Assembly: GCA_024654535.1 (NCBI GenBank)
Contig: JANLHL010000045.1
Location: 1 to 63,001, forward strand
Source of the DNA: Candidatus Roizmanbacteria bacterium
Lineage (GTDB): Bacteria; Patescibacteriota; Microgenomatia; UBA1406
DNA length: 63,001 nucleotides
Reading direction: 5' to 3'
The translations under genes and the position numbers were made by a program. Under the pieces are notes generated by a model that saw only the letters and a program-made list of their open reading frames with translations, was not told the DNA's origin and made no database searches. Shown one piece after another: positions 37,435 through 62,897 of the stretch. The stretch's first letter is position 1, and each line of letters opens with the position of its first letter.

Positions 37435-39017
37435 TAATCGGCAGGTTCGAGGTTCGAATCCTCGCCGGGGAGCCAGTTGGCACTTAATATACCAAGTTTA
37501 GCCTCATTAAGAACTTGGAGTGCAGGAGTGTATTCGACCTCCACTATTTTCTTATTTTGTACCCATATCTTTTGGAAGAAAAAGTGTAGATAAGCACGCT
37601 TGTGGTCGATGTCCGAATCCTCATAAGTTTGAACGATATTTCGAGTAAGTTTAAGTACTTCGTTAATGATGGAAGTATCAATAGTGTTGGTCTTATCCTG
37701 TTCTAAAAGTTCTTTCTGAATAACTAAGGCTTCTGCATCTAGTTGAGTATTGAATTTTTGGAGTTGCTCAGCAGATAGTTTGTTATCAAAGTAATCTTTT
37801 TCAATCTTTATTCTTTTTTGATCTACTGCATCTCTTTTGTTAAATAATGCCTTTTTAGCGTGTTGAATACGATCAATACTTTCATCGTAAACACGAGTAA
37901 TGTTGGTTTCAACAGCCTTGATAAATTCATCTGTAAAGGCAAGTTTATCGACTTCTTGTCTTACTTGGTCCTCTAAGTCAGTAAGCAGTACATATCTTGA
38001 AGGGCAACCACCACGCTTACCTGTTTGAGAGCAGTGATACATCCCAATCTTGCCATTACCAGTTTTATACTTCTCATGATAATGCCATTCCGCAACATAA
38101 CGTCTTCCGCAGTCTTTACAAAAGACGATACCCCTAAGAAGAAAGTTGTGCTTTCTTTTGCGTAAGCCATAATCACCTTTTTCTGAGAGTATTTTTTGGA
38201 CTAATTCAAAAGTAGGTTTGTCGACTAGCGGCTCATGTTTTCCCTTACCCACTTGTCCTCCGTGTCTCATCTCTCCCCAATAGAATGAGTTCTTGAGCAT
38301 ATTTCCGACAATGGAATATTGAATCGGTTTACCTTTTCTTCCAGTAACCCCATTCTTGTGGAGATACTGGCGAATATCATAAATCGCATAATCACGAGTT
38401 GCATACAGTTTAAATGCTTGACGGACAAAAGGTGCTGTATCAGGATCAGGAATAACAATCTTTTTGTCGTAAGAACCCTCAGGATTTTTATTGACAACAT
38501 TTAGATAACCTAACGGAGCCCAAGACGGATAATATCCTGCCTTAAATTTTTCTGCCGCTGTTTGTTTGACTTTATAGCTAGTCATGCGAGGAAAGAAGGC
38601 GTTCATCACCGCCATCATTTCATTCATTGTTCTGCTTACTGGATCACCATTAATCACTCCCGAAAGTGGAACGATTTTAACCCCACATTTTTCTAGTTCG
38701 CTAATAATAAAACAATATTCAAAAGTATCACGAGATAGTCGGGATATGTCTTGAACAACGAGATATTTGATGTCCTTTTTGGAACACCGACTTAATAGGG
38801 CTTGGAAGCTTGGTCTGTTTAAAGTTGTACCTGAAATCCCATTATCAACGTAGCAATCTTCAGCTAAGTACCCACCCAATTCTTGAATCTTTTCTAGCCC
38901 CTTAATCTGTTGGGTTTCAATACTGAGATTATCTACCTGATCCAGGGTACTTACTCTTGCGTAAAGAATGCACTTTGGTTTATCTCCATGTTCTGTAATA
39001 TCTTGTTTTAATCTCAT
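37362..39017 (-). CDS. large serine recombinase (integrase) 1; the last ~35 codons are antisense of the tRNA-Asn 3' exon and intron
   Basis: Catalytic ILYARVSTLDQ, recombinase domain, Zn ribbon (CKDCGRRY...CSQTGKRGGCPSRY), and a coiled-coil. The ORF reads through the junction at 37475 (..ILSANWL|PGEDSNLEPAD..). Confidence 0.9.
   Translation of the reverse strand: MRLKQDITEHGDKPKCILYARVSTLDQVDNLSIETQQIKGLEKIQELGGYLAEDCYVDNGISGTTLNRPSFQALLSRCSKKDIKYLVVQDISRLSRDTFEYCFIISELEKCGVKIVPLSGVINGDPVSRTMNEMMAVMNAFFPRMTSYKVKQTAAEKFKAGYYPSWAPLGYLNVVNKNPEGSYDKKIVIPDPDTAPFVRQAFKLYATRDYAIYDIRQYLHKNGVTGRKGKPIQYSIVGNMLKNSFYWGEMRHGGQVGKGKHEPLVDKPTFELVQKILSEKGDYGLRKRKHNFLLRGIVFCKDCGRRYVAEWHYHEKYKTGNGKIGMYHCSQTGKRGGCPSRYVLLTDLEDQVRQEVDKLAFTDEFIKAVETNITRVYDESIDRIQHAKKALFNKRDAVDQKRIKIEKDYFDNKLSAEQLQKFNTQLDAEALVIQKELLEQDKTNTIDTSIINEVLKLTRNIVQTYEDSDIDHKRAYLHFFFQKIWVQNKKIVEVEYTPALQVLNEAKLGILSANWLPGEDSNLEPADYILSLHFCKEWTIFFPLLEGQGAY
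37467..37491. repeat. attL-type junction: 25-bp direct repeat copy 1 (GGGGAGCCAGTTGGCACTTAATATA)
   Basis: Identical 25-mer at 58980-59004. The first 9 nt are the tRNA-Asn 3' end and the rest is the antisense of the recombinase 3' coding end. Confidence 0.8.
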
Positions 39018-39066
39018 ATATTTACTAACTAATGAGTAAACTTCCTATATCTATATAATCAAGCGT

Positions 39067-39342
39067 TTACTCATGAAAAGCACTCCGGATCGTTCTTTTG
39101 CATCGTTCTTCCTGTGCTTGTTCCATTAATAACTGACACCATTGTTGAGCAAGCTTATCCACATCAAACGGGGGTTGCGTATTCTTCCCATTTGGCAACG
39201 GGGACTTTAGTCCTGTTGGGTTGGTAGGTTTGTCCTTTCTAACTGATATCTCTCCTTGTGATATTTCGGGACACGATTGAGCCAACTTACTGTTATCAAG
39301 TGTTTTCTCTGATTTGGTAAATTGGCTCTTTCGTTTACTCAT
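39067..39342 (-). CDS. small hypothetical protein
   Basis: 91-aa ORF tightly packed between the resolvase-like gene and the recombinase. Confidence 0.45.
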   Translation of the reverse strand: MSKRKSQFTKSEKTLDNSKLAQSCPEISQGEISVRKDKPTNPTGLKSPLPNGKNTQPPFDVDKLAQQWCQLLMEQAQEERCKRTIRSAFHE

Positions 39343-39344
39343 GG

Positions 39345-39686
39345 TTATTTGCCTTTAACACCGCCTTGAACAGTTTTTATTTCAACGCCTACTTCCTTGA
39401 TGTACTGTTGCATTGAAATTGATTTGACCTTTTCTCTTGATAGACGATCAATATTGGCGCAGACAATGCAGTCTATTTCAACGGTCCCAATAACTAAAAA
39501 CATTTGAGACAAACCACAGCCTGGTAGGTTTTCTGATGATTTTGAGTCAATATACAAAGCTGTTAACTCTAAAGATTCCTTTTCGCAGTATTGTTTTATG
39601 CTATTCTCTTGATCTTCAAGGGATTTTTTATTACCTGTTGCTGACCGTATATAACCTACGGCAACTTTTTTTGTGTTATTCTTCAT
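39345..39686 (-). CDS. stand-alone resolvase-type catalytic-domain protein (no DNA-binding domain)
   Basis: GGAGGTG RBS. VGYIRSATGNKKSLEDQ...IDRLSR aligns with the YxRVST...DRLSR pattern of serine recombinases, but reads R-S-A-T where R-V-S-T is expected. Confidence 0.6.
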   Translation of the reverse strand: MKNNTKKVAVGYIRSATGNKKSLEDQENSIKQYCEKESLELTALYIDSKSSENLPGCGLSQMFLVIGTVEIDCIVCANIDRLSREKVKSISMQQYIKEVGVEIKTVQGGVKGK

Positions 39687-41067
39687 GCAATTTCACCTCC
39701 TCTCTATTCGAGTTTGCTAATTGATTAGGGAAATAGTCTGTTTTCAAGAGGGCGGTATCCACAGAAGGACGACTACTATCAAAAAGTGAAGAGTATGAGG
39801 CATTTCTCAGGCTAAATAGGTCTTCGGGACTCTTAAAAGTCTTAAAAGAAAAAGGTAGAAAATGATGAAAAAACAATATATTACTGAGGATAATTGTGGA
39901 CAATATAATTCCTTGTGCTTTCCCCTTATTGTTACTGCTCTTACTACTATGTTTAGTGATACTCCTGATGTGATATTTGTTATTCACCTTAGTTGTATCT
40001 ATTCCATACAAGTACCCAGGATTCTGACTTCCTCGTCTTTCGATTAGGTTTCCAAGCTTCCACAATGTCCTTCTGAGGGTGCTTTGGGAGATGTTTAATC
40101 GCTCACAAATCAGATTGGACGGCTTTGCTTCGAAGTAAATCTCGTTAAATAGTTTTAGACAGTTAGTATCACCTATGATGTCAGTAGGGATTGTTGGAAG
40201 CACCTTCATTTCCTGCTTATTCAGATGGGATGATACTTTTTCGTTTTGACTAATCTCGTCTGATCCTAGTATTGGAGTGTAGTCAGCTTTTTCGTAGGAG
40301 CTTTCCATGGATAGCGTTTTAGTTTTGAGAGAAGAAATGACTGCTTTTAGGACTGCTACGCCTCGCTTTTTAGCTACCTCCAAAGACATGGGTTTGATGA
40401 GTTGGATTTCTAGCTTTGGAGGTATGTTTTGGTTAACTTTTTGATTTGCCTTTAAATATTCGAGGACATGTTTATATGTTTTGATATTGCAGTAACCGTC
40501 AATGTAAAGGTTTTTAATCAGGTGGGAATATTCCTCATCAGGGTCTAGGGCACTAGTTTTAATGTTCATCTTCCCGACAATAAATCTCTTGGCTAACTTA
40601 TCTAATGCCTTTGTGACTTCATCAAACTTATTAAATGGATGGCGACAGCAGATTTCAACATAACCATAGGTGATATGGTCAACAAGTATTTCAATGCCGT
40701 TACTTTTCAGGGAGTCGATAAAATCTTGGATTCTTTTTTCGGGATACATTCCATCAACATGGATGACGTTTTTGATGTAGTCGATGTAAGCCCAATGTTT
40801 ATATTCAAGCTTTCCGTTTGCTAGTCCGTATTTTGGAAGCAATATCTTTACCTCTAGGGGAGAATAGGTGTGGTTATGGAAGTTGGTATAGATTTTATTG
40901 GATTGACCAACACTAAACTTCGGGTCAGTGAACCCAAATAGTTTACTAACTAATAAGGAAAGTGGAGTGCTTGATGAAACGAAAAGGGAGGCTTTTACTC
41001 TGTGGATGTAAAAGTATTCCTTAGGGGTTGAATAATCTATTTGGATGTTAGAAAAATTAGTATTCAT
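39676..41067 (-). CDS. hypothetical protein with internal HTH, possible replication/initiator protein
   Basis: 463 aa with an HTH-like ERLNISQSTLRRTLWKLGNLI. The N-terminal half loosely resembles the Rep-like protein at 55533-56672 (ILLPKYGLANG vs LSLPKLLFGNN). Confidence 0.45.
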   Translation of the reverse strand: MNTNFSNIQIDYSTPKEYFYIHRVKASLFVSSSTPLSLLVSKLFGFTDPKFSVGQSNKIYTNFHNHTYSPLEVKILLPKYGLANGKLEYKHWAYIDYIKNVIHVDGMYPEKRIQDFIDSLKSNGIEILVDHITYGYVEICCRHPFNKFDEVTKALDKLAKRFIVGKMNIKTSALDPDEEYSHLIKNLYIDGYCNIKTYKHVLEYLKANQKVNQNIPPKLEIQLIKPMSLEVAKKRGVAVLKAVISSLKTKTLSMESSYEKADYTPILGSDEISQNEKVSSHLNKQEMKVLPTIPTDIIGDTNCLKLFNEIYFEAKPSNLICERLNISQSTLRRTLWKLGNLIERRGSQNPGYLYGIDTTKVNNKYHIRSITKHSSKSSNNKGKAQGIILSTIILSNILFFHHFLPFSFKTFKSPEDLFSLRNASYSSLFDSSRPSVDTALLKTDYFPNQLANSNREEVKLHEE

Positions 41068-41142
41068 AATCTGAATACCATTTTCCTAAAAAGGGCGAAG
41101 GGAATATAACCTATACACAAGCGTCTAAAAAGGAACTGCAGT

Positions 41143-41961
41143 TTACAAGCCGATAAAAGGTAGGTATGAAGCTAGAAGATTTTCGTATGCCTTGATACCC
41201 TTGATGATGTCGAGATATGTAGTCGTGTCGTTTTCATTAATGTGAGCCTTTTGCCATTCCTTATCAACTTCTTTTACTGATCCAAGCTTTATTTTCCCCC
41301 AGTACCATTCCCGATACTTTCGAACATTGGGAGTCGTGTCTGCGTGGGGTTTATAATAGGACATAAATTCGTTTGTTTTCATCATTTCTTTTGCTTTTCG
41401 AAGTTCCTCATCAACATCGTCATAGGTGGAAATAGGAGAAACAAAAATAGCTATCTGATTAAGTGCAGGCCATGCCCCCAATAGTGAAAAATCAACAGTC
41501 TTTGCCTCGGTAGGTTTGAATAGAGTGTCATCGACAGCACCACAGAGGATTGCTTGTTTGATTGCATCAATAAAATACGGTGGTCGTTTAAACTCGTAGC
41601 AGATTAGGTTGCACTCAGCATCAAATGTTTCAGGTAATGCGTTTTGCGAGCTAGTTATAAAATCGTAAAATTCAGGGAAATTCTCTTTAACCTCTTTTAT
41701 CCTTGAATATTTTGAGAGATCAATTATTCCAGTCTTATTTTCTATAAACCAACCCTTTTCGTAACTATCTAACTGCTTCTTAAACTCGCCCAAGGTGAAT
41801 AAATCGGTAACACCATATGCTTTTCGAAGGTTTGGAAGCATTTGAAGAAACTTGTCTTTATCAAAAAAGATAGCTAAATCCTGATAGAGGATGTCTTTCT
41901 CTGTACGAATATCAATCCGTAACCCATGAAGATAGGATTTATCAATTTTCTTAATTTTCAT
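41143..41961 (-). CDS. hypothetical protein (weak paralog of 57165-57851)
   Basis: 272-aa ORF and first gene of the minus-strand backbone operon. Local similarity LRKAYGV...FKKQL vs LYRDKYSV...FDEWL. Confidence 0.55.
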   Translation of the reverse strand: MKIKKIDKSYLHGLRIDIRTEKDILYQDLAIFFDKDKFLQMLPNLRKAYGVTDLFTLGEFKKQLDSYEKGWFIENKTGIIDLSKYSRIKEVKENFPEFYDFITSSQNALPETFDAECNLICYEFKRPPYFIDAIKQAILCGAVDDTLFKPTEAKTVDFSLLGAWPALNQIAIFVSPISTYDDVDEELRKAKEMMKTNEFMSYYKPHADTTPNVRKYREWYWGKIKLGSVKEVDKEWQKAHINENDTTTYLDIIKGIKAYENLLASYLPFIGL

Positions 41962-42099
41962 ATATATTTTCAGACTCTCAACTACATTGTACTAAAAATA
42001 TGACTTCTAAGGCGATTTATAGGTTTATTTATAGGGTAAAGCAAGATGAAAAGTGATAAAATATGATTGTTTAGTCGAGAATATAAAAGAAAATAAATT

Positions 42100-42993
42100 A
42101 TGGATAATACGAGAATTAACATTCTTCATATTTGGACAGAGGACAATCTTCGATTACAGGGTGTCCATTACGATTCGGGTTCAAAAAATACCTGTGTATT
42201 GTGTATCCATGGCATGTCAGGAAATTTTATAGAAAACTACTTCGCTAGTGTTTTGGGTGACACATTGTCAAATCAAAATATTGGTTTTGTTTATGGTCAT
42301 AATCGTGGATATAACCACATCAACGACATCGTTAAAAAAGAAGCGGATGGCAAATTCAAGACAGTAAGAATTGGTGCTATGTATGAAAGGTTTGAAGAAA
42401 GCATTAATGATATAGATGCGTGGTTGAACGAAGTAAAAAGATTAGGCTATAAAAAGGTTGTACTCTTGGGTCATAGTTTGGGATGCAATAAGACAATCTA
42501 TTTTTATAGTAAGAAACAACCAAAAGACATAGCAGGGGTAGTTTTGGCTTCTCCTCCTGATATGGTTGGTTTATTTGAAAAGACAGAATATCAACCAAAC
42601 CATAAAGAACTGTTATCGGAAGCAATTAGCAATATCAAAGACGGAAACCCAAGAAAGTTGGTCAGTGGAACGGTTTGGGATTGGTATCAATTGTCTTCAC
42701 AAACATATTTCGACTTATCAGAAACTAAAGGTTTGGTAGACAACCTTCCTGTTTTACGAAGTCCTGATAAATTTGAGGAATTATCGCAAATAAATGTACC
42801 GATACTTGGAATAATGGGAGAACTTGATGATATTGCGATTAAAACACTTGAAGAGGATATGGACTTAATAGCCTCTAAAGCAGAAAAATGTCCTTCTTTT
42901 ACAAAAGAGTTCATAAAGGGAGCCAATCACACATACGATCAACAAGAAGAAGCCTTTGCCAAAGTTGTAACCGATTGGGTAAAAAAATTATGA
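42100..42993 (+). CDS. alpha/beta hydrolase
   Basis: VLCIHGMSGN, nucleophile elbow LLGHSLGCNK, C-terminal GANHTY. Confidence 0.75.
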   Translation: MDNTRINILHIWTEDNLRLQGVHYDSGSKNTCVLCIHGMSGNFIENYFASVLGDTLSNQNIGFVYGHNRGYNHINDIVKKEADGKFKTVRIGAMYERFEESINDIDAWLNEVKRLGYKKVVLLGHSLGCNKTIYFYSKKQPKDIAGVVLASPPDMVGLFEKTEYQPNHKELLSEAISNIKDGNPRKLVSGTVWDWYQLSSQTYFDLSETKGLVDNLPVLRSPDKFEELSQINVPILGIMGELDDIAIKTLEEDMDLIASKAEKCPSFTKEFIKGANHTYDQQEEAFAKVVTDWVKKL

Positions 42994-43550
42994 AAGACTT
43001 TTTAGAATTGGCTCGGAAATTTGGATATGAAGAAGTTGAGAGGACGGGAATGCCGCTCAAACTTCATGTAGATTTGGCATGCCAGGTTGGGAAGAGATTA
43101 GCAGAGATTTTGGGAGCAAATGTAGAAATCGTTGAAATTGGAACACTTCTTATGGATTGTATGATCGGCCAGGCCATTAAACAAGGGAAACTTAACGAGC
43201 ATATTCGAATGTCTGCTGAGAAAGCAGATGAATTGCTTTCCCATTCAAATCTTTCAAGCAAAGATAAGGAAAATATAAGGCATTGTGTGCTTGAACATCA
43301 CGGTGCGGATAAATTTTATTCCTTAGAGTCTGAAATTTGTTGTAATGCTGATTGTTACCGATTTACTTCAGTTAAGGGGTTTTCCTACGCCATGAGATAT
43401 ATGAGAGAGATGCCTTTCGTTGATATGGTTAATCTTTTGGAAAATAAAGTGGCAGAAAAATGGGGATTAGTTAGCTTAGATATTTGTAAGAAAGAACTAT
43501 CACCACAACATTCAGTACTGAAATCATTTCTTAAAAAACTAAAGGCGTGA
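42990..43550 (+). CDS. HD-domain-like protein (HD dyad reads M-D)
   Basis: ATGA overlap with the upstream gene. LKLHVDLA...GTLLMDCMIG...CVLEHHGADKFY follows the HD-superfamily spacing, but the canonical H of the HD dyad is Met. Confidence 0.55.
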   Translation: MKDFLELARKFGYEEVERTGMPLKLHVDLACQVGKRLAEILGANVEIVEIGTLLMDCMIGQAIKQGKLNEHIRMSAEKADELLSHSNLSSKDKENIRHCVLEHHGADKFYSLESEICCNADCYRFTSVKGFSYAMRYMREMPFVDMVNLLENKVAEKWGLVSLDICKKELSPQHSVLKSFLKKLKA

Positions 43551-43585
43551 ACAAAATTATATAGTTACTGCCCAAATGATAATAA

Positions 43586-46500
43586 ATGAGCGAATTTTCA
43601 GAACAGACAATCATTGATGAAAAGGGTCTTAAAATACTTGCTTTAGCATTTGATGAGCTATTTATAGACATTCAGTCTTTTGGAGCAAAAGACAAGACAG
43701 CGGATGTAGATGGAAGAGTCAGGCTTAGGGATGGAAAAAGCAAAAACTTAAACAAAGTTCTTGAGTTTCAATTAAAAAGCACCAAGAAGGTAAAGGGTAA
43801 TAAACACAGGTTTGATCGTAAGGATATTGACTATCAACTTTCATGCAATATCCCCACTCTAATGTTTGTTGTAGATGTGACAAGTAAGAAAACGTATTGG
43901 TATTATTTTCCAAATAATGTTAATAAACTTGATATAGGGAAAAGTTACGAAACTAAAACGCTTGATCTCAAAGGGTGTGAAGTCGATGGTAACTCTAAAG
44001 AACTTAAAGAATTATGGGAAAAGATAGCAAGTGTTGAACCTTCAGAAATTTCTTCGAAAACTGCAACATCAGAACTTGAGTTAGACGTAAGAGCTGACAA
44101 AACAGAAACATCCTCACAAGTTCGAGCAGTACTAAGCTATGAGGCAACCTCCGAATATCAATCAGAACTAGATAATGCCCGAGATTTAATAAACAACAAC
44201 AAACCCCTCACTGCCTTAAGTATCCTCGAAGATTTAAAAAAGCGTGTATGGAATAAAACTTCTGATAATCTAGTTAAATTTCGAATATTGACCAACATTG
44301 GAGCATCCAAACTTGCCTTAGATCAGGAGACAGAAGCATGTAAGTTGTTTCTTGAGGCACTCCAATACAATCCCGATGATGAAAAGGCATTAGCAAATGT
44401 TTCTTTAGCTTATTTATTATCAGGAGATAGCGCTCAGGCAATTACTTATGCACTCAAAACATTAGATAAGAATCCTTCCAACCCCCAAGCGTTATCTGTT
44501 TTTTTGCAAGCAGCTGATAAAAAGAAACGTGATAGTTATCTAGATAAATTATCGAGCACTCTCAAAAACTCACCTGAGGTGTATTTTTCACTTGGATTCG
44601 TTGAACAGAAAAATGATAACTACGAGCAAGCAATTCCTTACCTACGTAAAGCGTTGGAGCTTGATGATGGCAAATCATTAGAGATACCAAGTACATTAGC
44701 GGGAGCATTGATAGATAAAAATGTCCCAGTCCTAAAGAAACAGGAGCTTGAAGGTTTAACAAAGAAAGATAATGCGGAGGTTGAGGAAGCGATAGGACTT
44801 CTAGATAAGGTTTGGGGTAAGGTTGAAAATACTGAATTAGCAAAAACAAAAGTTAGTTGGTTGGTAAATCGAAGTTTTGCGAAGAGAGTTTTAGGTAAGT
44901 ATGACGAAGCCTATGAAGATGCAAAAAAAGCATGCGAACTTGATCCTGACAATTTTAATGGGATACGAAATTTTGCAATCCTTTCTTTTGAGATGAATAA
45001 GTATGACGAAGCAATCAAGCTTCTTGAGCCATTTAAAAACTCTAAAGAATTTCCTCAAGCTACTTATTTGATGGGATTAGTAGTAAGAGAACGTAAAGAT
45101 TTTGATAAGGCTATTGCACTAATTCTGAGTCAATTGGAACAACCGAATATAACAGACGATACTAAAGAAGATGGATTAGCACTTCTTATTGAAACGTATC
45201 TGATGGCGGGAAAACCTGATGATGCAGAAAAATATATAAACGATAATCTGAAAAAGAATGAAAAGAACTTAATGTTATTAGTTTTCAAGTCAAAACTTTA
45301 TCAGGATAGAGGGCAACAATCAGAGGCGATAGAACAAATTAAAAAGGCATATAGCTACTTAACTGAGACATCTTCTTACCATGACAAGTTTATGGTCGGA
45401 AGCCAACTATATAAACTTCAACAGTTTAAAGAAACTCAAGCGATTTACGAGGAGATAGTCGATAAATCTGTTTACTCTCAATTGTTGTATCGGCTTTTGT
45501 ACACCTATTACGAAACCAATAGTTACGCAAAAGCACTGGCTCTCAGTCGGTCAATAATTCAAAAACAAGGACCCATTGACGATGTATTAAAGATACAAGC
45601 TGCCATTTTGGAAGAACAAGGTGATCTCGATGGAGTTATAGCAACTTATGATATGGCGATTGAAAATAATCCTAATGACATCTCATCAAAGGTTCAAAAA
45701 GGGTTTGTGTTACTTAGGCAAAATAAATTTAAAGAAGTAGATAAGTATTTAGATGAGACAATTTTCGATTTAGAAACACTTTCGGAAACAATGAGATTCC
45801 GATTGGGATACCTCTATGCTCTTCGTGGAAAAATAGATGAATTCCTTACAACCATTTACGAAACTAGACGGAAATTTTATGACGATGAAAAAGCGCATGT
45901 GGAATACATTCAGCTGTTCTTCATGAGAACAAAAGACACTGAGTCCATTCTTGCCCCAAAAGAAGTTAAGGAAGGGACTGGGGTTGTTTATAAACTTCCC
46001 AATGGTCAGTTGGAACGCTTTGTTATTGATGATAGAGAAGATGCGTCCAAAGCACTTAAAGAAATTAGACCAAGCGAGGAGTTGGCAAAGAAATTAATGG
46101 GTAAAAAGGTTGGAGACAAAGTTGAAATTAAGCCAAGAGTGATTGTAGAAATAACGGAAATCAAGAGTAAATATGTCCATGCTTTACACGAAAGTATGGC
46201 GTTACACCAATCATTGTTTAGCGATACGCCTGGTCTGCAAAGTATTCAATTGGGTGAACCTAAAAAGAAGGGTGAATTACCTGAAGGATTTGACGTTATC
46301 GAGAAACAAATTACCGATCAATATGACCATGCACAAAAGGTGGAAGCTCTTTATAAGAATAAGAAGATTACCATCGGAGCTTTTGCGAATTTAATTGGTA
46401 GAAACATAATTGAAGTTTGGGGTGGGATGGTAGCCGAGGAAAGGTTGGGTATAAATTACGCAAGAGGTGATCTGCAAGAAAGGATCACTGCTGTTGCTGA

Positions 46501-54295: not shown

Positions 54296-54299
54296 ATTA

Positions 54300-54689
54300 T
54301 TAGTATTCCTCGTGCTTCATTCCGATCGTTGGAATAAAACGCACTAAATTACTTATAAGATAAAATGGTGCAATAATAAGCGAGGTGGCGCTCCACCAAC
54401 CTAAAAATAAAGTGGTAAGTGTCTTTTTTTTGAACTCTCGGTTTATACATTTTTTGCAAAATCTGCCTTTTACTGATGAGTATCGCCGTGCAAATATCAT
54501 TCCTATATTTTGATTAAACTCAACATTTTTAGTTGGCGCAAGACTACCACAAAGTTGGCACCCCCTTGTTTGTTTGGCAAAGTAGGTTTCGACTGATCCT
54601 TGTACTTGTTTTTCTTCAAGAGGCTCGCCACATTTATGGCAAAACTTTGCGTCTGCGTTAGTGTTTGAATTACAATTTTGGCAAAGCAT
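54300..54689 (-). CDS. double zinc-ribbon membrane protein
   Basis: MLCQNCNSNTNADAKFCHKCG plus CQLCGS...FCKKC, and a C-terminal TM helix. Confidence 0.62.
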   Translation of the reverse strand: MLCQNCNSNTNADAKFCHKCGEPLEEKQVQGSVETYFAKQTRGCQLCGSLAPTKNVEFNQNIGMIFARRYSSVKGRFCKKCINREFKKKTLTTLFLGWWSATSLIIAPFYLISNLVRFIPTIGMKHEEY

Positions 54690-54690
54690 T

Positions 54691-55353: not shown

Positions 55354-55354
55354 A

Positions 55355-55549
55355 TTATTTAGAGTCCTTATTTTTAAGAAAGATATCTAGATTCTCCCTT
55401 TTTATTCTATATTGTTTTCCCGCCTTTACGGCTATAAGCTTTTCCGCTCGTACCCATCGATAAACAGTTAAATAGGCAACCTTTAAAGTTTTAGAGACTT
55501 CCTCTATGGAGTAATATTGGCTGTGTTTCATATTAGTTATATTTAACAT
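55355..55549 (-). CDS. excisionase-family (MerR-type) HTH DNA-binding protein
   Basis: YYSIEEVSKTLKVAYLTVYRWVRAEKLIAVKAGKQYRIKRENLDIFL is the typical Xis/AlpA-like HTH. Confidence 0.72.
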   Translation of the reverse strand: MLNITNMKHSQYYSIEEVSKTLKVAYLTVYRWVRAEKLIAVKAGKQYRIKRENLDIFLKNKDSK

Positions 55550-56672: not shown

Positions 56673-56967
56673 ACATTTTTGTTACATCTTCAAACTTTTT
56701 AATTACCGCCCTTTCAATTTGTTGTGCTACATCTTTGTTTATCGGATGGAAAACATTAAAACTACTGTTTGTTGTTTTTCGAGTAGGGTATGTCAAACGA
56801 TACCCGCCCTCTGGTCTTGTGTAAATACCAATAGAGCCCAAATATAGGCAACCGTCAAATACCAAGCTTGCAAACCCTACTAACCCGTTACTGGGCTTAA
56901 CAGGTACTATCTGTAATTCAGTTATTCTGTCTTTCATATGATTTATTTCTTTTTTTTCTTTGGTCAA
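56641..56967 (-). CDS. spoVG: SpoVG family nucleic-acid-binding protein
   Basis: ITELQIVPVKPSNGLVGFASLVFDGCLYLGSIGIY...YPTRK...FHPIN aligns with the B. subtilis SpoVG core, including HPIN. The start may be the ATG at 56937. Confidence 0.75.
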   Translation of the reverse strand: MTKEKKEINHMKDRITELQIVPVKPSNGLVGFASLVFDGCLYLGSIGIYTRPEGGYRLTYPTRKTTNSSFNVFHPINKDVAQQIERAVIKKFEDVTKMYVGHNQINTG

Positions 56968-57085
56968 TTTCTATAAGTATGGAAAAAAAGTCAGTGAATT
57001 TTTTTAACTCATCAGCAGGCAAAACACGTTTGTTTGTAAGTGGCGTTTGGTTCTGCTCTACTGGAAGTGTAACCTTCGTTTTCAT
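56918..57085 (-). CDS. 55-aa hypothetical protein (below the ORF-track cutoff)
   Basis: Hand-translated: MKTKVTLPVEQNQTPLTNKRVLPADELKKFTDFFSILIEIDQRKKRNKSYERQNN. Fills the gap upstream of spoVG. Confidence 0.3.
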   Translation of the reverse strand: MKTKVTLPVEQNQTPLTNKRVLPADELKKFTDFFSILIEIDQRKKRNKSYERQNN

Positions 57086-57164
57086 TGATTAAAGATTAGG
57101 ACTTAGGGTTAAGAAAGTATGTGTCTGGAGCTATTGAGTAACAGTAGTTACCAACAATTCACTG

Positions 57165-57851
57165 TTACGAGAGAATTTTTTTATATCTGTGATATAAAGT
57201 TTTCATGTAGTCTTCGTTTATTCTTCCGATTTCATCATCAGGATAATCTTTACTTAATATGTCGGCGATCTGAGCAAACGACTTTTGTTTTTTACGAAGT
57301 CCACATATTTTTTTTGCGAGGTCTAAAGTTGGAATATTTCTAACTTTAATTTTTGGCAATGTTTGTAAAATTGCAGATATTTCATCCCATCTATTATTTA
57401 TAAAATTTAGAAATTCTGTCTTACCCATGTGGTTAAATATTTTAATATCAATGAATTTTTGTTCTTTATCAACCTCTTGTGTGATCTGAACTTCGGATAA
57501 ATATGGTGCATATTTTTTATTGCATATAATATACATTATGAGTGGTAGAAACCAACTCGAAACGGGTTCTATTTTTAGTTGTTTCATGAAATCTATTAAG
57601 TCCCCAGTAAGTTTAAGAACTTCATCTGTTGATAACCATTCATCAAATTGCTTAGTGTTCATTCCAGAAGGAGGGACACTATATTTGTCTCTATATAATT
57701 TTATTTTTTTTTGGAAACTATCTGATTTTAATAGTACACTCCATGCTCTTGCAGCTTTATTATTATTTAAGGGTTCAAAGGTGTCAGTGTCGTGGTAGTA
57801 ATCTAACCTATTTTGTTTCATTACATTTTCTATGGCAAATAAATTCTTCAA
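57165..57851 (-). CDS. hypothetical protein with C-terminal HTH-like segment
   Basis: 228 aa with LAKKICGLRKKQKSFAQIADIL near the C-terminus. Weak paralog of 41143-41961. Confidence 0.55.
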   Translation of the reverse strand: MKNLFAIENVMKQNRLDYYHDTDTFEPLNNNKAARAWSVLLKSDSFQKKIKLYRDKYSVPPSGMNTKQFDEWLSTDEVLKLTGDLIDFMKQLKIEPVSSWFLPLIMYIICNKKYAPYLSEVQITQEVDKEQKFIDIKIFNHMGKTEFLNFINNRWDEISAILQTLPKIKVRNIPTLDLAKKICGLRKKQKSFAQIADILSKDYPDDEIGRINEDYMKTLYHRYKKILS

Positions 57852-57892
57852 TTGTATTATAATTGATATTGTTACTCTAAGGTAGTAAATAT

Positions 57893-58432
57893 ATGGTCAA
57901 AAAAAATACAACGAAAACAAAAATGGACAAGACTACATCAGGAATAATCATTTACTTAATATCTTCTCTAAACGGAGTTCTCGGAAAAACACACCTTCAA
58001 AAGCTCATTTTTTTAGCAGATTTACTAGCCTCAAAGAAATTTAACAAACCTATCACCAAAATGAAGTATATTCGTTATACTCATGGACCATATTCACAGA
58101 GCCTTGGTGAGTATGTAAAGTGCTTAGTTTCAGGTAATTTCATAGAGGAAAGGCGGTTTCCTTTTATATCAAACCCCAATAAACGCTATTCTAGATTTTA
58201 CGACAAGAAAAAAACTGATGTGAAAAATTTTCTGGTAGAAAGTATTGGCGCAGAAAAAATGTTACTGATTGATGAAATCGTACAATCGTATGGCAACAAA
58301 AGCTTACAACAAGTATTGGATTTTGTTTATTCCTTAGAAGAAGTTAAAGACGCTAAATTTGACAGTCCTATTAAATTAGCTAAGGATATTAAGGTAAAAG
58401 ACGTGGAACCTACAGATGAAGTCCCATTTTAG
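57893..58432 (+). CDS. Panacea (DUF4065, SocA-like) domain antitoxin
   Basis: LGKTHLQKLIFLADLLASKKFNKPITKMKYIRYTHGPYS is the DUF4065 signature. Confidence 0.78.
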   Translation: MVKKNTTKTKMDKTTSGIIIYLISSLNGVLGKTHLQKLIFLADLLASKKFNKPITKMKYIRYTHGPYSQSLGEYVKCLVSGNFIEERRFPFISNPNKRYSRFYDKKKTDVKNFLVESIGAEKMLLIDEIVQSYGNKSLQQVLDFVYSLEEVKDAKFDSPIKLAKDIKVKDVEPTDEVPF

Positions 58433-58434
58433 GC

Positions 58435-58884
58435 ATGACACCAACTTTTTCTAAATGGGATATTGTATACCCTCTGAGATACCCCGAAACTATACTTTGT
58501 TCAAGTTGTCATAAATCTTTCACTATCAATCCACAACAATTATGCGAGCACTGTAATCACTCTAATCACGTCTCGAATGTTATAGCTAAAGTTCGTCCAA
58601 TGATACTTTGGATTGATAAAATAAGATGGTATGACAGTATGACCTTCGGAATACCCCTTTCTACGTCCGACTTTTTTTCCGATACCCATAACCAAGAGAT
58701 TAAAATAGAACACTGTATTTTTTTCGATAAAAGATACGAGAGCCCTATGAGGGCCGTCTTAGCTCAAGCAACAAGAACAGATGGTAATGTATTATTGGCA
58801 AAACATAAAGTTGGCCACATCGCAGACTCAACTATAAAAACGCAAATAGAAGAAAAGCTTTGGGTCTGGTTATTCGGGAGCTAA
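58435..58884 (+). CDS. MazF/PemK-fold toxin-like protein with inserted zinc ribbon
   Basis: Starts 3 nt after the antitoxin stop. Motifs in MazF order: WDIVY, KVRPMILW, GIPLSTS, AVLAQATRTDGNVL. A CSSC...CEHC insert lies between the first two motifs. Confidence 0.55.
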   Translation: MTPTFSKWDIVYPLRYPETILCSSCHKSFTINPQQLCEHCNHSNHVSNVIAKVRPMILWIDKIRWYDSMTFGIPLSTSDFFSDTHNQEIKIEHCIFFDKRYESPMRAVLAQATRTDGNVLLAKHKVGHIADSTIKTQIEEKLWVWLFGS

Positions 58885-58979
58885 AACGCTGGTGTAATAT
58901 TAAACGCCTCATAGAGCGTTTTGATAGATACTAAACTAACATCTAACTTAACTTTCCTTTTCCTAAATGCGTTTACCAA

Positions 58980-59004
58980 GGGGAGCCAGTTGGCACTTAA
59001 TATA
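58980..59004. repeat. 25-bp direct repeat copy 2 (GGGGAGCCAGTTGGCACTTAATATA)
   Basis: Identical to 37467-37491 and preceded by TACCAAG, which also precedes the junction at 62891. Confidence 0.8.
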
Positions 59005-59028
59005 ACCAAAATTTGGTAAAGTAAGATT

Positions 59029-59349
59029 ATGGACTTAAAACAATTAACCGCAAAAGCAAAAGAAGTTAAAGAGCTTTATTCAAAGCATAATGAAAAAAGT
59101 GGCGAGAAAACATGGAGTAACGCTGAATACGCCCAAGGTCTTGTTGGTGACGTAGGTGATTTAGTAAAACTCTTAATGGCTAAGAATAATTTTAGACATT
59201 ATGACAATCTTGATGAAAAAATTGCACATGAATTATCCGATTGTCTGTGGTCGATTCTAGTAATTGCTGACGATCTTAAAGTTGATTTAGAACCTGAGTT
59301 CGCTAATACAATGAATGAACTCAAAAAAAGAATTACTGACAATATGTAG
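59029..59349 (+). CDS. MazG-like nucleotide pyrophosphohydrolase
   Basis: EYAQGLVGDVGDLVKLLM...ELSDCLWSILVIADDLKVDLE is a small all-alpha MazG pattern. Confidence 0.72.
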   Translation: MDLKQLTAKAKEVKELYSKHNEKSGEKTWSNAEYAQGLVGDVGDLVKLLMAKNNFRHYDNLDEKIAHELSDCLWSILVIADDLKVDLEPEFANTMNELKKRITDNM

Positions 59350-59524
59350 TAACTTTCTCTATTTCCTCTCTGATTTGAGCTACAAGCCTAAAGTCAGAGA
59401 AAGCCTTGATAATACAAGCTAATTGCGTGGTTATATTAGTGTTACGATTCTCGAGCCAGTTGTCACTTAATATACCATGTTTAGCCTCATTGATAGCTTG
59501 GAGTGAAAGTGTGCCTAATTTCAA
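59333..59524 (-). pseudogene. 3' fragment of a recombinase-1-type serine recombinase gene with an intact tail
   Basis: The translation ..LQAINEAKHGILSDNWL matches recombinase 1 (LQVLNEAKLGILSANWL). It is followed by ENRNTNITTQLACIIKAFSDFRLVAQIREEIEKV, identical to the recombinase 2 tail. No catalytic domain is present. Confidence 0.7.
59350..59458. repeat. 109-bp near-identical repeat, copy 2
   Basis: Matches 51353-51461. Identity ends after GAGCCA at 59453-58. Confidence 0.8.
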
Positions 59525-59566
59525 GATTTATTTGTAAACCTCCAAATAATCTTGGATAATAAAATT

Positions 59567-60208
59567 ATGAAAAGCAAAAAAAGAAGTGTCCCGACTGGAT
59601 TGTTTGTTAGCTTGATTATTATTTTGGTTGTTTTCATCAGTTATTTTTATTTTCAAAGTTCGAAAAGTGTTAGTATTCAACCTGTATCTTCCATAACGAC
59701 TGATCAAACAGTAAATTGGAAAGAATATAAAAACGATCTATATACAATTAAATTTCCATGGACTAATGCGGAAGTTTTTGATCGGCCATCAATGCCCAAC
59801 TTTACACAAGGATTTCCATTTGGTAAACGGTATAAATCTTTAAAAATCGTTTCTCCAGGAGACTTAGCTGTTAGCTACTTAGAAATCCAAAGCTATATTA
59901 AAAATGATTATGGTAGCGATCATAAAAGTGTTATCAGTTCTATATTTTCGGATTATATAATTAGGTCGAATCAGCCTAAAAATATAGGAAAAATTACAGG
60001 AAACGAGTTTGTGATCACTAATCCAAAGTGGCCTAGAGTTAAAGAAAATGGAGGACTGCTAATGTTTGTTGTTGATTCAGGTAAATACACTCACTTTTTC
60101 TTTACGGGAGTTGATTATGAATTAGATAATCAGTCAAAACCAATATTGAAGGTAGATACACAAGAGGAGTTCGAGAATATTCTGTCAACGGTTGACTTAT
60201 TAGATTAA
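59567..60208 (+). CDS. membrane-anchored hypothetical protein
   Basis: ATG at 59567 (MKSKKRSV), one N-terminal TM helix, and an unknown extracytoplasmic domain. Confidence 0.5.
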   Translation: MKSKKRSVPTGLFVSLIIILVVFISYFYFQSSKSVSIQPVSSITTDQTVNWKEYKNDLYTIKFPWTNAEVFDRPSMPNFTQGFPFGKRYKSLKIVSPGDLAVSYLEIQSYIKNDYGSDHKSVISSIFSDYIIRSNQPKNIGKITGNEFVITNPKWPRVKENGGLLMFVVDSGKYTHFFFTGVDYELDNQSKPILKVDTQEEFENILSTVDLLD

Positions 60209-60304
60209 ATTAATTTTTCCTAGAGAGATGTTTTAAGACGAAGTCTGGCTGTGTGTTTGTTGCTAACTCTTCAAAATTATAGAACTTTCTATTTCCTTAA
60301 GTAC

Positions 60305-60333
60305 TTGAAATTTAGAAAGTCTCATGATACAAT
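60305..60333 (+). promoter_or_regulatory. sigma70-like promoter of the TrpR/YerC-like operon
   Basis: TTGAAA, a 17-nt spacer, then TACAAT, directly abutting the palindrome. Confidence 0.5.
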
Positions 60334-60359
60334 GCACTAATGTACTAGTACATTAGTGC
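60334..60359. promoter_or_regulatory. perfect 26-bp palindrome, candidate operator
   Basis: GCACTAATGTACT|AGTACATTAGTGC. The centre GTACTAGTAC resembles CTAG-centred TrpR operator half-sites. Lies 8 nt before the regulator ATG. Confidence 0.55.
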
Positions 60360-60367
60360 TAAACAAT

Positions 60368-60619
60368 ATGAAAAACAACAACATAAATGAACTAGTAGAA
60401 GCCTTTTTGCAGGCAAAAAACAAGGAAGATGCATTAGACTTATTAAAAGGGTTGCTAACAGCTAAGGAATTGGATGAAATAGCTCGTAGGCTTCAAATTG
60501 TAAAATTATTAAAGTCGGGCATGACCCAGCGTGAAATAGTAGATAAGCTTAATGTAGGTATAGCTACAGTTACCAAAGGATCAAAAGAACTAAAAACTGG
60601 AAGATTTAAAAAAATATGA
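60368..60619 (+). CDS. TrpR-like / YerC-YecD family regulator
   Basis: LLTAKELDEIARRLQIVKLLKSGMTQREIVDKLNVGIATVTKGSKEL. Confidence 0.78.
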   Translation: MKNNNINELVEAFLQAKNKEDALDLLKGLLTAKELDEIARRLQIVKLLKSGMTQREIVDKLNVGIATVTKGSKELKTGRFKKI

Positions 60620-61530
60620 AACAGACGGATCTAAGTTTGATTCCATATCTTCAATTAACTGCAGCAATGGCTATAGTGGGAAGTTCTATGGTGGTTGGTA
60701 AAATTATTACTTCTAGCTTCCCTGTATTTTTAGCTTCAGGACTAAGCCTCGGAATAGCGTCATTGATATTTGTATATTTATTGATTTTTTCTAAATACAG
60801 CATACCTAAACTTAACAAAAAGGATTTACTAGTTATCCTTTTACAGGCATTTTTGGGAACATTTATTTACAGAACATTATTGTTATACGGTTTAAGATAC
60901 ACAACCGCTATGCAATCCGGAATAATAACTAGCACAGGGCCTGCTGTTATAGGTGTACTTTCTTATCTTCTATTAAGAGAAAAAGTAACAAAGAATAAGC
61001 TGATAGGAATAATTTGTTCGGTCTTAGGTGTGTTGATAATCAATTTAAATACAGTTTCTGCAACATCCGAACAAAAAGCTGCTCTCTTATTGGGTTTTAG
61101 TTTAGTTTTTGGAAGTGTAATTGTAGAAGCCTTGTTTAGCGTTTTGGCTAAGATGGTGTCAACCAATGTGACCCCTCTAGTTATGGCGGCTTTTGTTACA
61201 TTTTTTAGTTTTGTTATGTTTTTGCCATTTTCAGTTTATGAAGGCTTAAGGTTTAATTATGCACAAACAAATATGGCCGATTGGGTTTCAATCGTCTATT
61301 ATGGTTTGTTTGTGACTGTTATTTCATTCCAATTATGGTTTAGGGGATTATCTAAGGTGGATGCGTCTGCTGCAGGAGTTTTTATGGGTGTAGTGCCAGT
61401 AAGTAGCCTTATATTAAGTTATTTTATACTGAAGGAGCCGTTTTATTTGTCCTACTTAGCTGGTGCGGCTTTTGTTATATTGGGTATATCGTTTATTTAC
61501 AAAAGTCACAAATATGAACCCAACAAATAA
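60616..61530 (+). CDS. DMT superfamily (EamA) transporter
   Basis: 10 TM helices in two EamA halves. ATGA overlap with the regulator gene. Confidence 0.85.
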   Translation: MKQTDLSLIPYLQLTAAMAIVGSSMVVGKIITSSFPVFLASGLSLGIASLIFVYLLIFSKYSIPKLNKKDLLVILLQAFLGTFIYRTLLLYGLRYTTAMQSGIITSTGPAVIGVLSYLLLREKVTKNKLIGIICSVLGVLIINLNTVSATSEQKAALLLGFSLVFGSVIVEALFSVLAKMVSTNVTPLVMAAFVTFFSFVMFLPFSVYEGLRFNYAQTNMADWVSIVYYGLFVTVISFQLWFRGLSKVDASAAGVFMGVVPVSSLILSYFILKEPFYLSYLAGAAFVILGISFIYKSHKYEPNK

Positions 61531-62230
61531 CACTAGAAAAATTGGCATTATTGGAGGAGTAGGCCCTCAGGCTACTCAGTTTATATATGGGAAGATAATT
61601 GAGTTATCACAGACCAAATACGGTGCTAAAAACAATGACGACTACCCGAAAATATTAATTGAAAGTGTCCCTGTGCCTGATTTTATTTCTGATACTTCCC
61701 AAATTGAAGTTGCAAAAAGGATGCTGATCAAATCTACCCAATCTTTAACTAGTGCGGGGGCAACAAGAATATGTATTGGTAGTAACACTGTCCATATTCT
61801 TCTTGAAGAATTACAAAAAAACACAGAAGTTAAGTTTATTTCGATGATCGAATTGGTAGCCAAGAAATGTGTTGAACTTGGTTTTAGTAAAGTAGGCTTG
61901 CTTGGAACGCCAGTTTTGATTAAATCAGGCTTATATGAGCAAGAAATGAAAAAACATGGAATTGAATTAGTTTTACCAACAGAAAATGAAAGTGAGATTG
62001 CAGACAGTATTATTCGTGATGTTCTTGCAGGTCAAAAGTCGTTTGATAAAAAGCAAGAATATATTGGGGCCTTAAATGATCTATTTAGTAGAGGTGCACA
62101 AACAATCATCTTGGGTTGTACCGAACTTCCGTTAGCGATTAACTACGAAGCCTTAGGTAATAGGACAATTAGTTCTGATGAGATTCTTGCCGAAGGTTTG
62201 GTTGACTATTACTACAATTCAAACGAATAA
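61514..62230 (+). CDS. aspartate/glutamate racemase family protein
   Basis: IGIIGGVGPQAT and ILGCTELP. The first catalytic-Cys position reads GSNTVH instead of CNTAH. Confidence 0.82.
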   Translation: MNPTNNTRKIGIIGGVGPQATQFIYGKIIELSQTKYGAKNNDDYPKILIESVPVPDFISDTSQIEVAKRMLIKSTQSLTSAGATRICIGSNTVHILLEELQKNTEVKFISMIELVAKKCVELGFSKVGLLGTPVLIKSGLYEQEMKKHGIELVLPTENESEIADSIIRDVLAGQKSFDKKQEYIGALNDLFSRGAQTIILGCTELPLAINYEALGNRTISSDEILAEGLVDYYYNSNE

Positions 62231-62234
62231 AATT

Positions 62235-62711
62235 ATGATTGAACAAATAGCACTTGACTACAGCGATGCTCTTAAGGCTCTCGACATCGAGCATAAAATT
62301 TTAGAACACCCGCACTTAGTTAACCCTGAAGAAGTTCAAGGATTTTTGGGTGAAACTGTCGCCGACTGTGTAGCCTCACTAGTCATGAAGGCTGATGACA
62401 AATTTGTAGTCATCCTCAAAAAAGGTGATGACCACTTAAACTTCAAGAAAATAAAGAAAACATTGGGAGTTGGTGATCTACGTTTTGCTACAAAAGAAGA
62501 ATTTACTGAAATTACGAAATTGCCTTTTGGTGCGGCTAGGATATACATCCAAGGATTAGACACATACATAGATCAGAGAGTTTTTGACAAAGAATATCTA
62601 AATGGTGGTACGGGTAGCTTTACTTGCACTTTTAAATATAAGACGGCTGATATGAAGAAAATCCCAGGGAGTACTGTCCTTGAGGTTTCGGATGAGCCTA
62701 GTTTTTTATAA
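62235..62711 (+). CDS. YbaK/EbsC-like aminoacyl-tRNA deacylase domain protein
   Basis: Size and blocks (KILEH...SLVMKADDKFVVILKKGDDHLNFKKIKK...GGTGS) fit the YbaK/ProX editing-domain family. Confidence 0.68.
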   Translation: MIEQIALDYSDALKALDIEHKILEHPHLVNPEEVQGFLGETVADCVASLVMKADDKFVVILKKGDDHLNFKKIKKTLGVGDLRFATKEEFTEITKLPFGAARIYIQGLDTYIDQRVFDKEYLNGGTGSFTCTFKYKTADMKKIPGSTVLEVSDEPSFL

Positions 62712-62756
62712 ATAAGTTAGCATTGAACTGCGACCGCTTGTTAATGAACTAGTTTA

Positions 62757-62897
62757 TTTCACCTTCTCTATTTCCTCCCAAGCTTGAGCTGCAAACCCAA
62801 AATAAGAGAAGGTATCATCATCAAATATGATTGTATATTTCGCAGACTAACTCCCATCTCCACTTCCCTATTCCTGAACGCATGTACCAAGGGGAGC
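62757..62897 (-). pseudogene. decayed recombinase tail plus attR-type junction
   Basis: The reverse strand reads L-PLVHAFRNREVEMGVSLRNIQSY, then after a frameshift FDDDTFSYFGFAAQAWEEIEKVK*. This is homologous both to the tail at 58885-58986 and to the tail at 51327-51455. Confidence 0.5.

Follow-up and report, generated by a model that had tools for sequence, protein, structure and literature searches.

The closest described counterparts of the locus discussed here are the staphylococcal cassette chromosome (SCC) arrays and the ssrA islands of Dehalococcoides. SCC and SCCmec elements are inserted repeatedly by large serine recombinases (LSRs), CcrAB or CcrC, at the 3' end of an essential gene, rlmH (orfX), and the newer elements lie next to the target. 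Our subject is a 63,001-nt stretch of DNA from Candidatus Roizmanbacteria bacterium (GTDB lineage Bacteria; Patescibacteriota; Microgenomatia; UBA1406), positions 1–63,001 of the forward strand of contig JANLHL010000045.1 in assembly GCA_024654535.1, which we call the window. Between 37.5 and 62.9 kb it very probably holds an array of integrative elements, each inserted by an LSR at the 3' end of one intron-containing tRNA-Asn(GUU) gene. It resembles SCC in forming an array at the 3' end of a single gene, and differs in that the SCC ccr genes are internal and unsplit, and their target codes for protein.

The Dehalococcoides islands (ssrA-GIs; McMurdie et al. 2011) stand in tandem downstream of the tmRNA (transfer-messenger RNA) gene, bounded by repeats of its 3' end; beside attL, on the reverse strand, lies the gene for a serine recombinase of ~540 amino acids (aa), DsiB, followed by DsiA, a second and small gene with a serine-recombinase domain, and units without a recombinase were read as cis-mobilizable (PMC3146451). 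The present array is laid out in much the same way—LSR-1 accompanied by a 113-aa open reading frame (ORF) at 39345–39686, tandem units, some units with no recombinase—the likeness being one of architecture. It differs in its target, tRNA-Asn rather than tmRNA, in its host phylum, and in the length of its core, 4–9 bp as against a 20-bp repeat. It differs, too, in that the core lies inside the recombinase ORF and the C-terminal tail of the enzyme appears to be exchanged, of which PMC3146451 has no description.

Tyrosine integrases generally target tRNA genes, and serine integrases usually target ORFs (PMC9303363). Like the classical tRNA islands, the array uses the 3' end of a tRNA gene and accumulates at that one tRNA; unlike them, it has no tyrosine integrase (a search for Phage_integrase covering every ORF of 85 aa or more between 37 and 63 kb found none), and its core is far shorter than their 20–45 bp. 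The integrases of SSV1-type archaeal viruses are tyrosine recombinases with attP inside the integrase gene and a tRNA as target; integration there splits the gene into two large parts, whereas here only the last ~40 codons would be exchanged, and by serine recombinases. The accretion and mobilization of ICESt1 and the CIME elements (Pavlovic et al. 2004, via PMC3146451) follows a similar logic of accretion, with a tyrosine recombinase, long att identity and fda as target; as outlined there, no gene is split. In mycobacteriophage BPs, attP lies inside the repressor gene, integration alters the C-terminus of the repressor, and the free form carries an ssrA-like tag whose effect was shown experimentally (PMC4557955). 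Here it is the recombinase that is altered, and the ssrA-like tail is a resemblance of sequence alone. The array is set apart from these systems by its tRNA-Asn target, its very short core, the position of the core in the recombinase ORF, and a predicted exchange of tails that yields chimeric recombinases. A literature search for serine recombinases at tRNA-Asn, in the candidate phyla radiation (CPR) or Patescibacteria, or with attP within the integrase gene, found no description of the family.

A split tRNA-Asn gene, two recombinases and five junctions

The tRNA-Asn gene at the left end of the array escapes ARAGORN, which lists no tRNA anywhere in the window; the reason is a group I intron of 560 nt, containing an HNH ORF, that interrupts the gene's anticodon loop. 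Its parts are these:

36841–36874, + strand: 5' exon of tRNA-Asn(GUU), ending ...CTGT in the anticodon loop, as read from the sequence
36875–37434, + strand: group I intron, 560 nt (Rfam RF00028, 89.5 bits over 37145–37426)
36907–37254, + strand: HNH endonuclease ORF inside the intron (Pfam HNH)
37435–37475, + strand: 3' exon of tRNA-Asn, holding the core of junction A (37470–37473) and CCA (37473–37475)

When the exons 36841–36874 and 37435–37475 are joined, ARAGORN returns a 75-nt tRNA-Asn(gtt). The intron has the marks of group I—a covariance match, a U before the 5' splice site, a G at its 3' end, and exons that form a tRNA—and the gene at the left end of the array is a genuine, intron-split tRNA-Asn(GUU).

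Two recombinase genes, both on the minus strand, each cross a junction, and in each the core sits in Leu-Trp codons; TGG, the Trp codon at the core, is the antisense of CCA.

37362–39017, – strand: LSR-1, 551 aa (Pfam Resolvase, Recombinase, Zn_ribbon_recom); body 37476–39017
37362–37475, – strand: read-through of LSR-1 into antisense tRNA and intron, ...GILSANWL then PGEDSNLEPADY...
51327–52907, – strand: LSR-2, 526 aa, an apparent chimera with tail ii (same three Pfam domains); body 51462–52907

LSR-2 reads ...YADRQAWL and then ENRNTNITTQLACIIKAFSDFRLVAQIREEIEKVKPCMAISA, which we call tail ii. The two proteins are 22% identical and belong to the same Pfam families (PF00239, PF07508 and PF13408), and among solved structures the integrases of TP901-1, TnpX and A118 come nearest to them. 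In a family alignment of 41 homologues the serine of the RVST motif hardly varies (at least 90%), and an AF2 model of a natural full-length enzyme, P0022, has a confident body with long helices at 367–446. (Here and below, P-numbers denote homologue proteins and L-numbers fetched metagenome contigs compared with the window.) Domains, Ser motif and helices together identify LSR-1 and LSR-2 as large serine recombinases.

Homologues number 126 at E <= 1e-20 for LSR-1 and at least 1888 for LSR-2, and the named sources are CPR bacteria: Daviesbacteria, Woesebacteria, Microgenomates, Pacebacteria and WS6. After a conserved ...WL most of them read PRVDSNHEP, PGEDSNLEP or the like, which is the antisense of the tRNA T-arm in translation; the best LSR-2 matches end ...QAWL and then enter antisense tRNA-Asn. 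Some 163 of 240 homologue clusters (~163) have a tRNA-antisense ending or a stop no more than four codons past the core, and 35 of the 53 distinct LSR 3' junctions, counted in the window and the fetched loci, enter the antisense T-arm. Among these 35, GCTC is near-invariant (33–35 of 35); 28 have CCA at the CCA triplet, which varies in the other seven. Where the anticodon loop can be read it is CTGTTAA, or is broken after CTGT by an intron, and ARAGORN calls a tRNA-Asn overlapping the LSR 3' end in L087, L093, L135–L140 and L142. The T-arm junctions, the anticodon loops and the ARAGORN calls thus show both families to be specific for the acceptor end of tRNA-Asn. Distant LSR-2 relatives (P0211–P0240) end ...W-C-A-R, ...W-R-G or ...W-Q-P-Q-G-D-S-N-P, with the Trp constant; such endings resemble the acceptor ends of other tRNAs read in antisense, and the wider family may target several tRNA species.

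The earlier note had listed five junctions with a common core, and a check of the sequence finds all five in place. The core is GAGC, nucleotides 71–74 of the tRNA:

37470–37473: core of junction A
51456–51459: core of junction D
58983–58986: core of junction B
59453–59456: core of junction C
62894–62897: core of junction E

The arms are reassorted exactly at this core, as the note had also claimed: the left arm of D matches that of C, the right arm of A matches those of B and C, and the left arm of B matches that of E. Self-alignment, which the note had proposed as a check on the limits of the repeats, finds repeats far beyond chance:

37467–37491 and 58980–59004: direct repeat, 25 nt, exact (junctions A and B)
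51355–51461 and 59352–59458: 107 nt at 98% (left of D and C)
37470–37530 and 59453–59513: 61 nt at 87% (right of A and C)
58935–58991 and 62846–62902: 57 nt at 75% (around B and E)

To the right of the core, D and C are unrelated in sequence. Tail ii and the tRNA have only GAGCCA in common, and the tRNA-derived repeat is merely GAGC or GGGGAGCCA. On the sense strand junction E reads GGGGAGCAAATT, resembling sites of unoccupied type in L139 (GGGGAGCAAATA) and L034 (GGGGAGCAAGAC), and none of the three has CCA. Because these sites have no CCA, and tail ii has only GAGCCA of the tRNA, the exchange falls within GAGC, and the 2-bp crossover dinucleotide is likely, from these comparisons, to be GA or AG. 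Identity between partners at the point of exchange is limited to 4–9 bp. The first element starts at 37476, because the CCA of the tRNA occupies 37473–37475.

Composition changes at the same place. The chromosome to the left of the tRNA carries ordinary functions (SecD, a MacB-type ABC transporter, MarR), and its GC content (1–36841) is 0.401, compared with 0.361 in element A and 0.353 in element B, the two elements delimited below, and 0.338 and 0.347 in the remnants at 58989–59458 and 59459–62897. In each case every window of the same size in the left part is richer in GC, and the tetranucleotide correlation to the left part is lower, too. The impression, formed by eye, that the block is poorer in GC than the 36 kb beside it holds when computed, at 0.34–0.36 against 0.40, and the profile has its discontinuity at 37.5 kb.

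The intron is not peculiar to this genome; by Rfam, the same insertion point, after CTGT, recurs in several CPR genomes:

L061 11749–12030
L068 11594–11806
L092 12440–12650
L107 1024–1421
L122 3740–3979

ARAGORN overlooks these split genes as well. A literature search found no report of bacterial tRNA-Asn group I introns. L034 (7220–7830) and L052 (6420–6730) have partial copies of the first ~17 nt of tRNA-Asn upstream of the intact gene, each followed by hairpin-like sequence and a small ORF that by eye has GIY-YIG character; these may be another mobile insertion associated with tRNA genes in the two genomes. GIY-YIG genes (precomputed Pfam PF01541) adjoin tRNAs in L064, L139 and L140.

Elements A and B and their relatives

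Two intact elements appear to follow the tRNA, delimited as follows:

37476–51461: element A, ~14.0 kb; backbone conserved beside LSR-1-type genes in many loci, colinear in L068
51327–51461, – strand: tail ii and the core of junction D; cognate C-terminal tail of LSR-1-type enzymes, now in frame with LSR-2
51462–58988: element B, ~7.5 kb; same backbone beside LSR-2-type genes in L135–L142
58881–58988, – strand: tail i and the core of junction B; in frame, NWL, then PLVNAFRKRKVKLDVSLVSIKTLYEAFNITPAF and a stop; cognate tail of LSR-2-type elements

The pairing of tails with recombinases comes from loci in which the two types occur apart or in another order. L068, a 359-kb contig, has an LSR 92–93% identical to LSR-1 in a stand-alone element that ends in tail ii, and it is colinear with the window at 37.2–39.2, 41.3–41.6, 48.9–49.0 and 51.34–51.46 kb. 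In L139 and L140 the LSRs are 77–78% identical to LSR-2, the backbone is that of 55.3–57.0 kb (SpoVG, an ORF of ~380 aa and HTH_17), and the elements end in tails of type i/E. L142 has the order of the window reversed: an LSR-2-type element stands beside the tRNA-Asn with an LSR-1-type gene behind it, and because the LSR-2-type element is the proximal one, the LSR-1-type gene carries tail i. From these three cases tail ii is assigned to element A and tail i to element B. Units of both kinds thus occur independently elsewhere (A type in L068, B type in L135–L141), backbone genes co-occur with their respective LSR type across the fetched loci, and further arrays of two to four or more units are present in L143, L087, L117, L093 and L073. 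The units all point the same way, downstream of a single target, and a copy of the core marks off each of them, which is the pattern of tandem accretion.

How such an array might grow follows from the position of the core. The attP of a free element would extend from the coding sequence of the tail through the core and into the recombinase body, of which it takes in the final ~21 nt, with strand exchange within GAGC, inside the recombinase's own reading frame. Because the core lies inside that frame, integration would join the body to the tRNA and leave the tail, of 35–45 codons, stranded at the element's opposite end. The next element to arrive would insert at the tRNA-proximal junction, pushing the older ones outward, and the displaced recombinase would take the newcomer's tail, so that each insertion swaps the last ~40 aa. 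LSR-2 with tail ii would be a chimera of this kind, because A inserted between the tRNA and B. Four steps suffice in the window. An element E1 would have inserted first, giving junction E; a unit whose attP combined tail ii' with an LSR-1-type arm would have followed, giving C; then element B (attP of tail i and LSR-2), giving B; and lastly element A (attP of tail ii and LSR-1), giving A and D. The order is the most parsimonious one that we infer. With L068, L139, L140 and L142, this history, which yields all five junctions, favors the stepwise accretion at the tRNA that the earlier note had preferred.

That note had also offered an alternative, namely that 37476–58988 is one composite element, inserted once, with the 25-bp direct repeat as its ends; LSR-2 with tail ii would then be intact, and D would be no junction at all. 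The repeat is indeed exact, LSR-2 is an uninterrupted ORF of 526 aa, and arrays could move as a unit by accretion and mobilization (PMC3146451). As the origin of the locus this is nevertheless improbable. Tail ii ends a stand-alone LSR-1-type element, and LSR-2-type elements end in tails of their own, in the loci just described; the stacking order is found reversed; tail ii is present on only one of the 120 best LSR-2 homologues, and that one is the window's own copy. The left arms of D and C agree at 98% over 107 nt and their likeness ends exactly at the core, and the 16 nt to the right of B are a recurrent half-site remnant, not tRNA flank, and are missing from the empty sites in L034 and L052. 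Once assembled by accretion, A and B may still excise or be mobilized together.

A second rival supposes that the shared motifs are simply the ordinary conserved 3' ends of paralogous recombinases, and that the mosaics are the work of homologous recombination, duplication or gene decay, with no site-specific exchange at a core. The tails are, after all, homologous peptides under selection, and recombinase remnants are common. We think this very unlikely: unrelated sequences switch at the same 4–6 nt in five junctions of the window and in dozens of independent contigs, one arm is tRNA in most cases, and identity of 4–9 bp is too short for homologous recombination. Least probable of all is that the assembly fused strain variants into a chimera through their repeats. 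In its favor, this is a metagenome-type assembly with repeats of 25 and 107 nt, on a contig that ends 104 nt past E. Against it, the partners at A, D and B have only 6–9 nt in common, an overlap too short to lead an assembler from one to the other; the copies of the 107-nt repeat are not identical and stand in different contexts; and equivalent arrays are present in independent assemblies (L087, L142 and L143).

Several points weigh against an array built by accretion. A canonical LSR does not join attP to attL: unless a recombination directionality factor (RDF) is present it pairs attP with attB alone, and excision requires the RDF. Insertion at a resident junction would for that reason need specificity that is relaxed, or dominated by one half-site; the arrays imply insertion into attL-like sites, which would be atypical of LSRs. 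The attP arms show inverted symmetry only moderately stronger than shuffled sequences do (tail ii against LSR-1-type arms: shuffle fractions 0.02–0.08), and the alignment of tail i with the LSR-2 arm is off-center and asymmetric about the core. By tblastx, the left 37 kb of the window has no synteny with any fetched locus, and so offers no empty site in a close relative; the fetched loci include no excised circle and no empty or partly filled site in a close relative, and a search of the contigs for the terminal repeats of circular forms found none. No homologues of the cargo genes of 59.5–62.9 kb were found in the fetched loci. The contig, finally, ends at 63,001, 104 nt past E, which places the right boundary beyond a check of composition.

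Inverted-repeat scoring was tried as evidence for the pairing of tails with recombinases and was dropped, its support being weak to moderate. Identical-protein look-ups for flanking genes (alpha/beta hydrolase, YbaK), made in search of strain variants and of the right flank, returned no record. A scan of a genome collection with the tRNA 3' end recovered mostly unrelated phyla that have the same T-arm and acceptor sequence, and only L034 and L052 were useful. The search for empty tRNA-Asn sites in related genomes, which the earlier note had called for, turned up these two, both in distant relatives, and no syntenic close relative came to light.

Cargo, older units and the right boundary

The interior of element A comprises a backbone and a cargo region:

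39067–39342: 91-aa backbone ORF
39345–39686, – strand: small backbone ORF, 113 aa, with the serine-recombinase (resolvase) catalytic domain alone (Pfam 1.3e-12)
39676–41067: 463-aa backbone ORF
41143–41961: 272-aa backbone ORF
42100–51317: cargo (alpha/beta hydrolase, TPR-GreABC-PIN protein, 2-hydroxyacid dehydrogenase, ABC1 kinase, RHH protein)
43586–47434, + strand: 1282-aa protein (nuclease-like DUF4365 at the N-terminus, numerous TPR repeats, PIN domain of the TPR-GreAB-C-PIN type)

The 113-aa ORF lies two genes from LSR-1, like the DsiA and CcrA partners; its motif is YIRSAT instead of Y-x-R-V-S-T, and the catalytic serine may be displaced. The 1282-aa protein is a candidate defense gene.

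Element B, in turn, contains:

52904–55353: cargo, trypsin-like and zinc-ribbon proteins
55355–55549: backbone HTH_17 ORF (Pfam HTH_17), candidate excisionase or RDF
55533–56672: 379-aa backbone ORF
56641–56967: backbone SpoVG
57893–58884, + strand: cargo, SocA/Panacea pair

The candidate RDF occurs in element B only. The stop of the SocA/Panacea ORF (179 aa) overlaps the start of the next ORF, which has 149 aa and CxxC motifs; this pair at the tail end of the element is likely a toxin and antitoxin. A search with PHROGs gave no structural or phage matches on the elements, and a scan of viral contigs found nothing related and no sign of phage nature; by their gene content A and B read as small integrative elements. 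Their cargo includes genes of predicted defense type—the 1282-aa protein, the SocA/Panacea pair and the trypsin-like protease—and relatives carry, between backbone and recombinase, a Piwi-domain Argonaute with a DpnII-type nuclease, or restriction-modification systems of type I or II, the loci of such defense cargo being:

L061 1700–3853
L135 3482–10004
L140 7053–10035

Beyond element B come two older segments and the end of the contig:

58989–59458: mini-unit of 0.47 kb without a recombinase, consisting of half-site remnant, MazG-like ORF and tail ii'
58989–~59010: LSR-1-type half-site remnant, ~21 nt
59029–59349: MazG-like ORF
59333–59458: tail ii', with the core of junction C at 59453–59456
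59459–62897: outermost segment, ~3.4 kb (218-aa ORF, TrpR-like, EamA, Asp/Glu racemase and YbaK-like, by Pfam)
59459–59524, – strand: remnant of an LSR-1-type 3' coding end, ~66–70 nt, fused to tail ii', ...LQAINEAKHGILSDNWL (the 87% repeat over 61 nt)
62761–62897, – strand: decayed, frameshifted tail i' and the core of junction E; 75% to tail i in nucleotides, 71% to the L139 tail in amino acids
62898–63001: original tRNA trailer

The layout of the mini-unit—tRNA or core, a remnant of ~21 nt, no gene or one, and tail ii—recurs in L061 and L064, and remnants of ~20–22 nt precede tails in L068 and L093, too. In the older units of arrays the recombinase gene has repeatedly been cut to the same ~20–22 nt beside the core, TTGGTATATTAAGTGCCAAC-like, and the remnant resembles the arm of the resident LSR in the same genome:

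window 58989–59010
L061 ~11680–11700
L064 ~12396–12417
L068 ~895–915
L093 ~2045–2066

Where the earlier note had seen 18 nt of recombinase-1-type body at junction B, the sequence is of LSR-1 type, as it said, and is really this recurrent half-site remnant of ~21 nt. The idea that the ~18 nt to the right of B are original tRNA flank was ruled out by the empty sites in L034 and L052, which have no such sequence. The remnants look like decayed elements that kept the recombinase half-site, preserving a usable att site for a neighbor; that selection maintains them is a guess.

The outermost segment, 59459–62897, is probably a decayed element, or more than one. Because its genes have no relatives in other elements, this reading, which is that of the ~3.4-kb element remnant proposed earlier, draws its support from the two bounding junctions, C and E, and from the low GC. 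The contig ends so close to the outermost junction that the assembly perhaps broke off within the array or beside it.

Some LSR-1-type genes are fused to tail ii without the three NWL codons that hold the core, and these chimeras are presumably no longer able to recombine at that junction:

L061 11500–11560 (P0008)
L064 11520–11560 (P0020)
P0078
P0083

Tail exchange and its possible meaning

The tails that the earlier note described are present at the junctions as it said; they are more than flanks, being a real, conserved C-terminus of the recombinases. Past its first eight codons tail ii has a dN/dS of 0.07–0.23, also in copies stranded at element ends, with synonymous sites saturated between distant copies; the tail is under purifying selection. 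A search for tail ORFs through 1.84 billion representatives found 95 clusters with the tail, almost all of them orphan ORFs of 32–120 aa with the tail at the C-terminus, as expected when the gene is split and most copies are integrated. Native tails often have a hydrophobic end that resembles an ssrA tag (...SLALAA, ...SLALAV, ...CLAVSA and ...PAIA are examples): 18 of 37 fit [AVIL][AVILST][AV], as against none of 203 other C-termini. A related host has a tmRNA tag with YAYA at its end. The fit to a strict ssrA-like pattern is found in only 12 of 44 orphan tails. In the AlphaFold model of P0022 the tail has pLDDT values of 41–63 and two short helices, and is uninformative on function.

Judged by the window and by the C-termini of homologues, integrated and free forms of the enzyme differ at the C-terminus, as they would in a switch that depends on integration. 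Our working hypothesis is that the free form has a functional tail and that integration removes it, possibly affecting stability, much as integration truncates the BPs repressor (PMC4557955). Tentatively, then, the split recombinase gene might act as a sensor of the state of integration: the enzyme may bear a tail solely while its element is an excised circle, or on loan from a neighbor in the array, and integration may switch the stability or activity of the recombinase, a control of directionality built into the att site. A second tentative possibility is that the units without a recombinase—a half-site of ~21 nt, no gene or one, and a tail—are cassette-like passengers, which the LSRs may mobilize in trans at tRNA-Asn.

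For annotation, the locus carries a plain lesson: an intron can hide tRNA-Asn from ARAGORN, and the C-termini of recombinases in databases are often translated tRNA. For the biology of the CPR, a little-studied part of the bacterial tree, it points to LSR families that target a tiny and universally conserved site, the acceptor end of tRNA-Asn, with the crossover inside their own reading frame. The arrays, which bring defense-type genes into very small genomes, suggest that these LSRs also accept sites already occupied. Serine integrases are workhorses of genome engineering, and their attP is generally described as lying outside their own gene. The families described here are a source of numerous natural attP/attB pairs, the target being short and defined, and should the enzyme be regulated by the exchange of its tail, recombination would have a simple and self-contained route to directionality.

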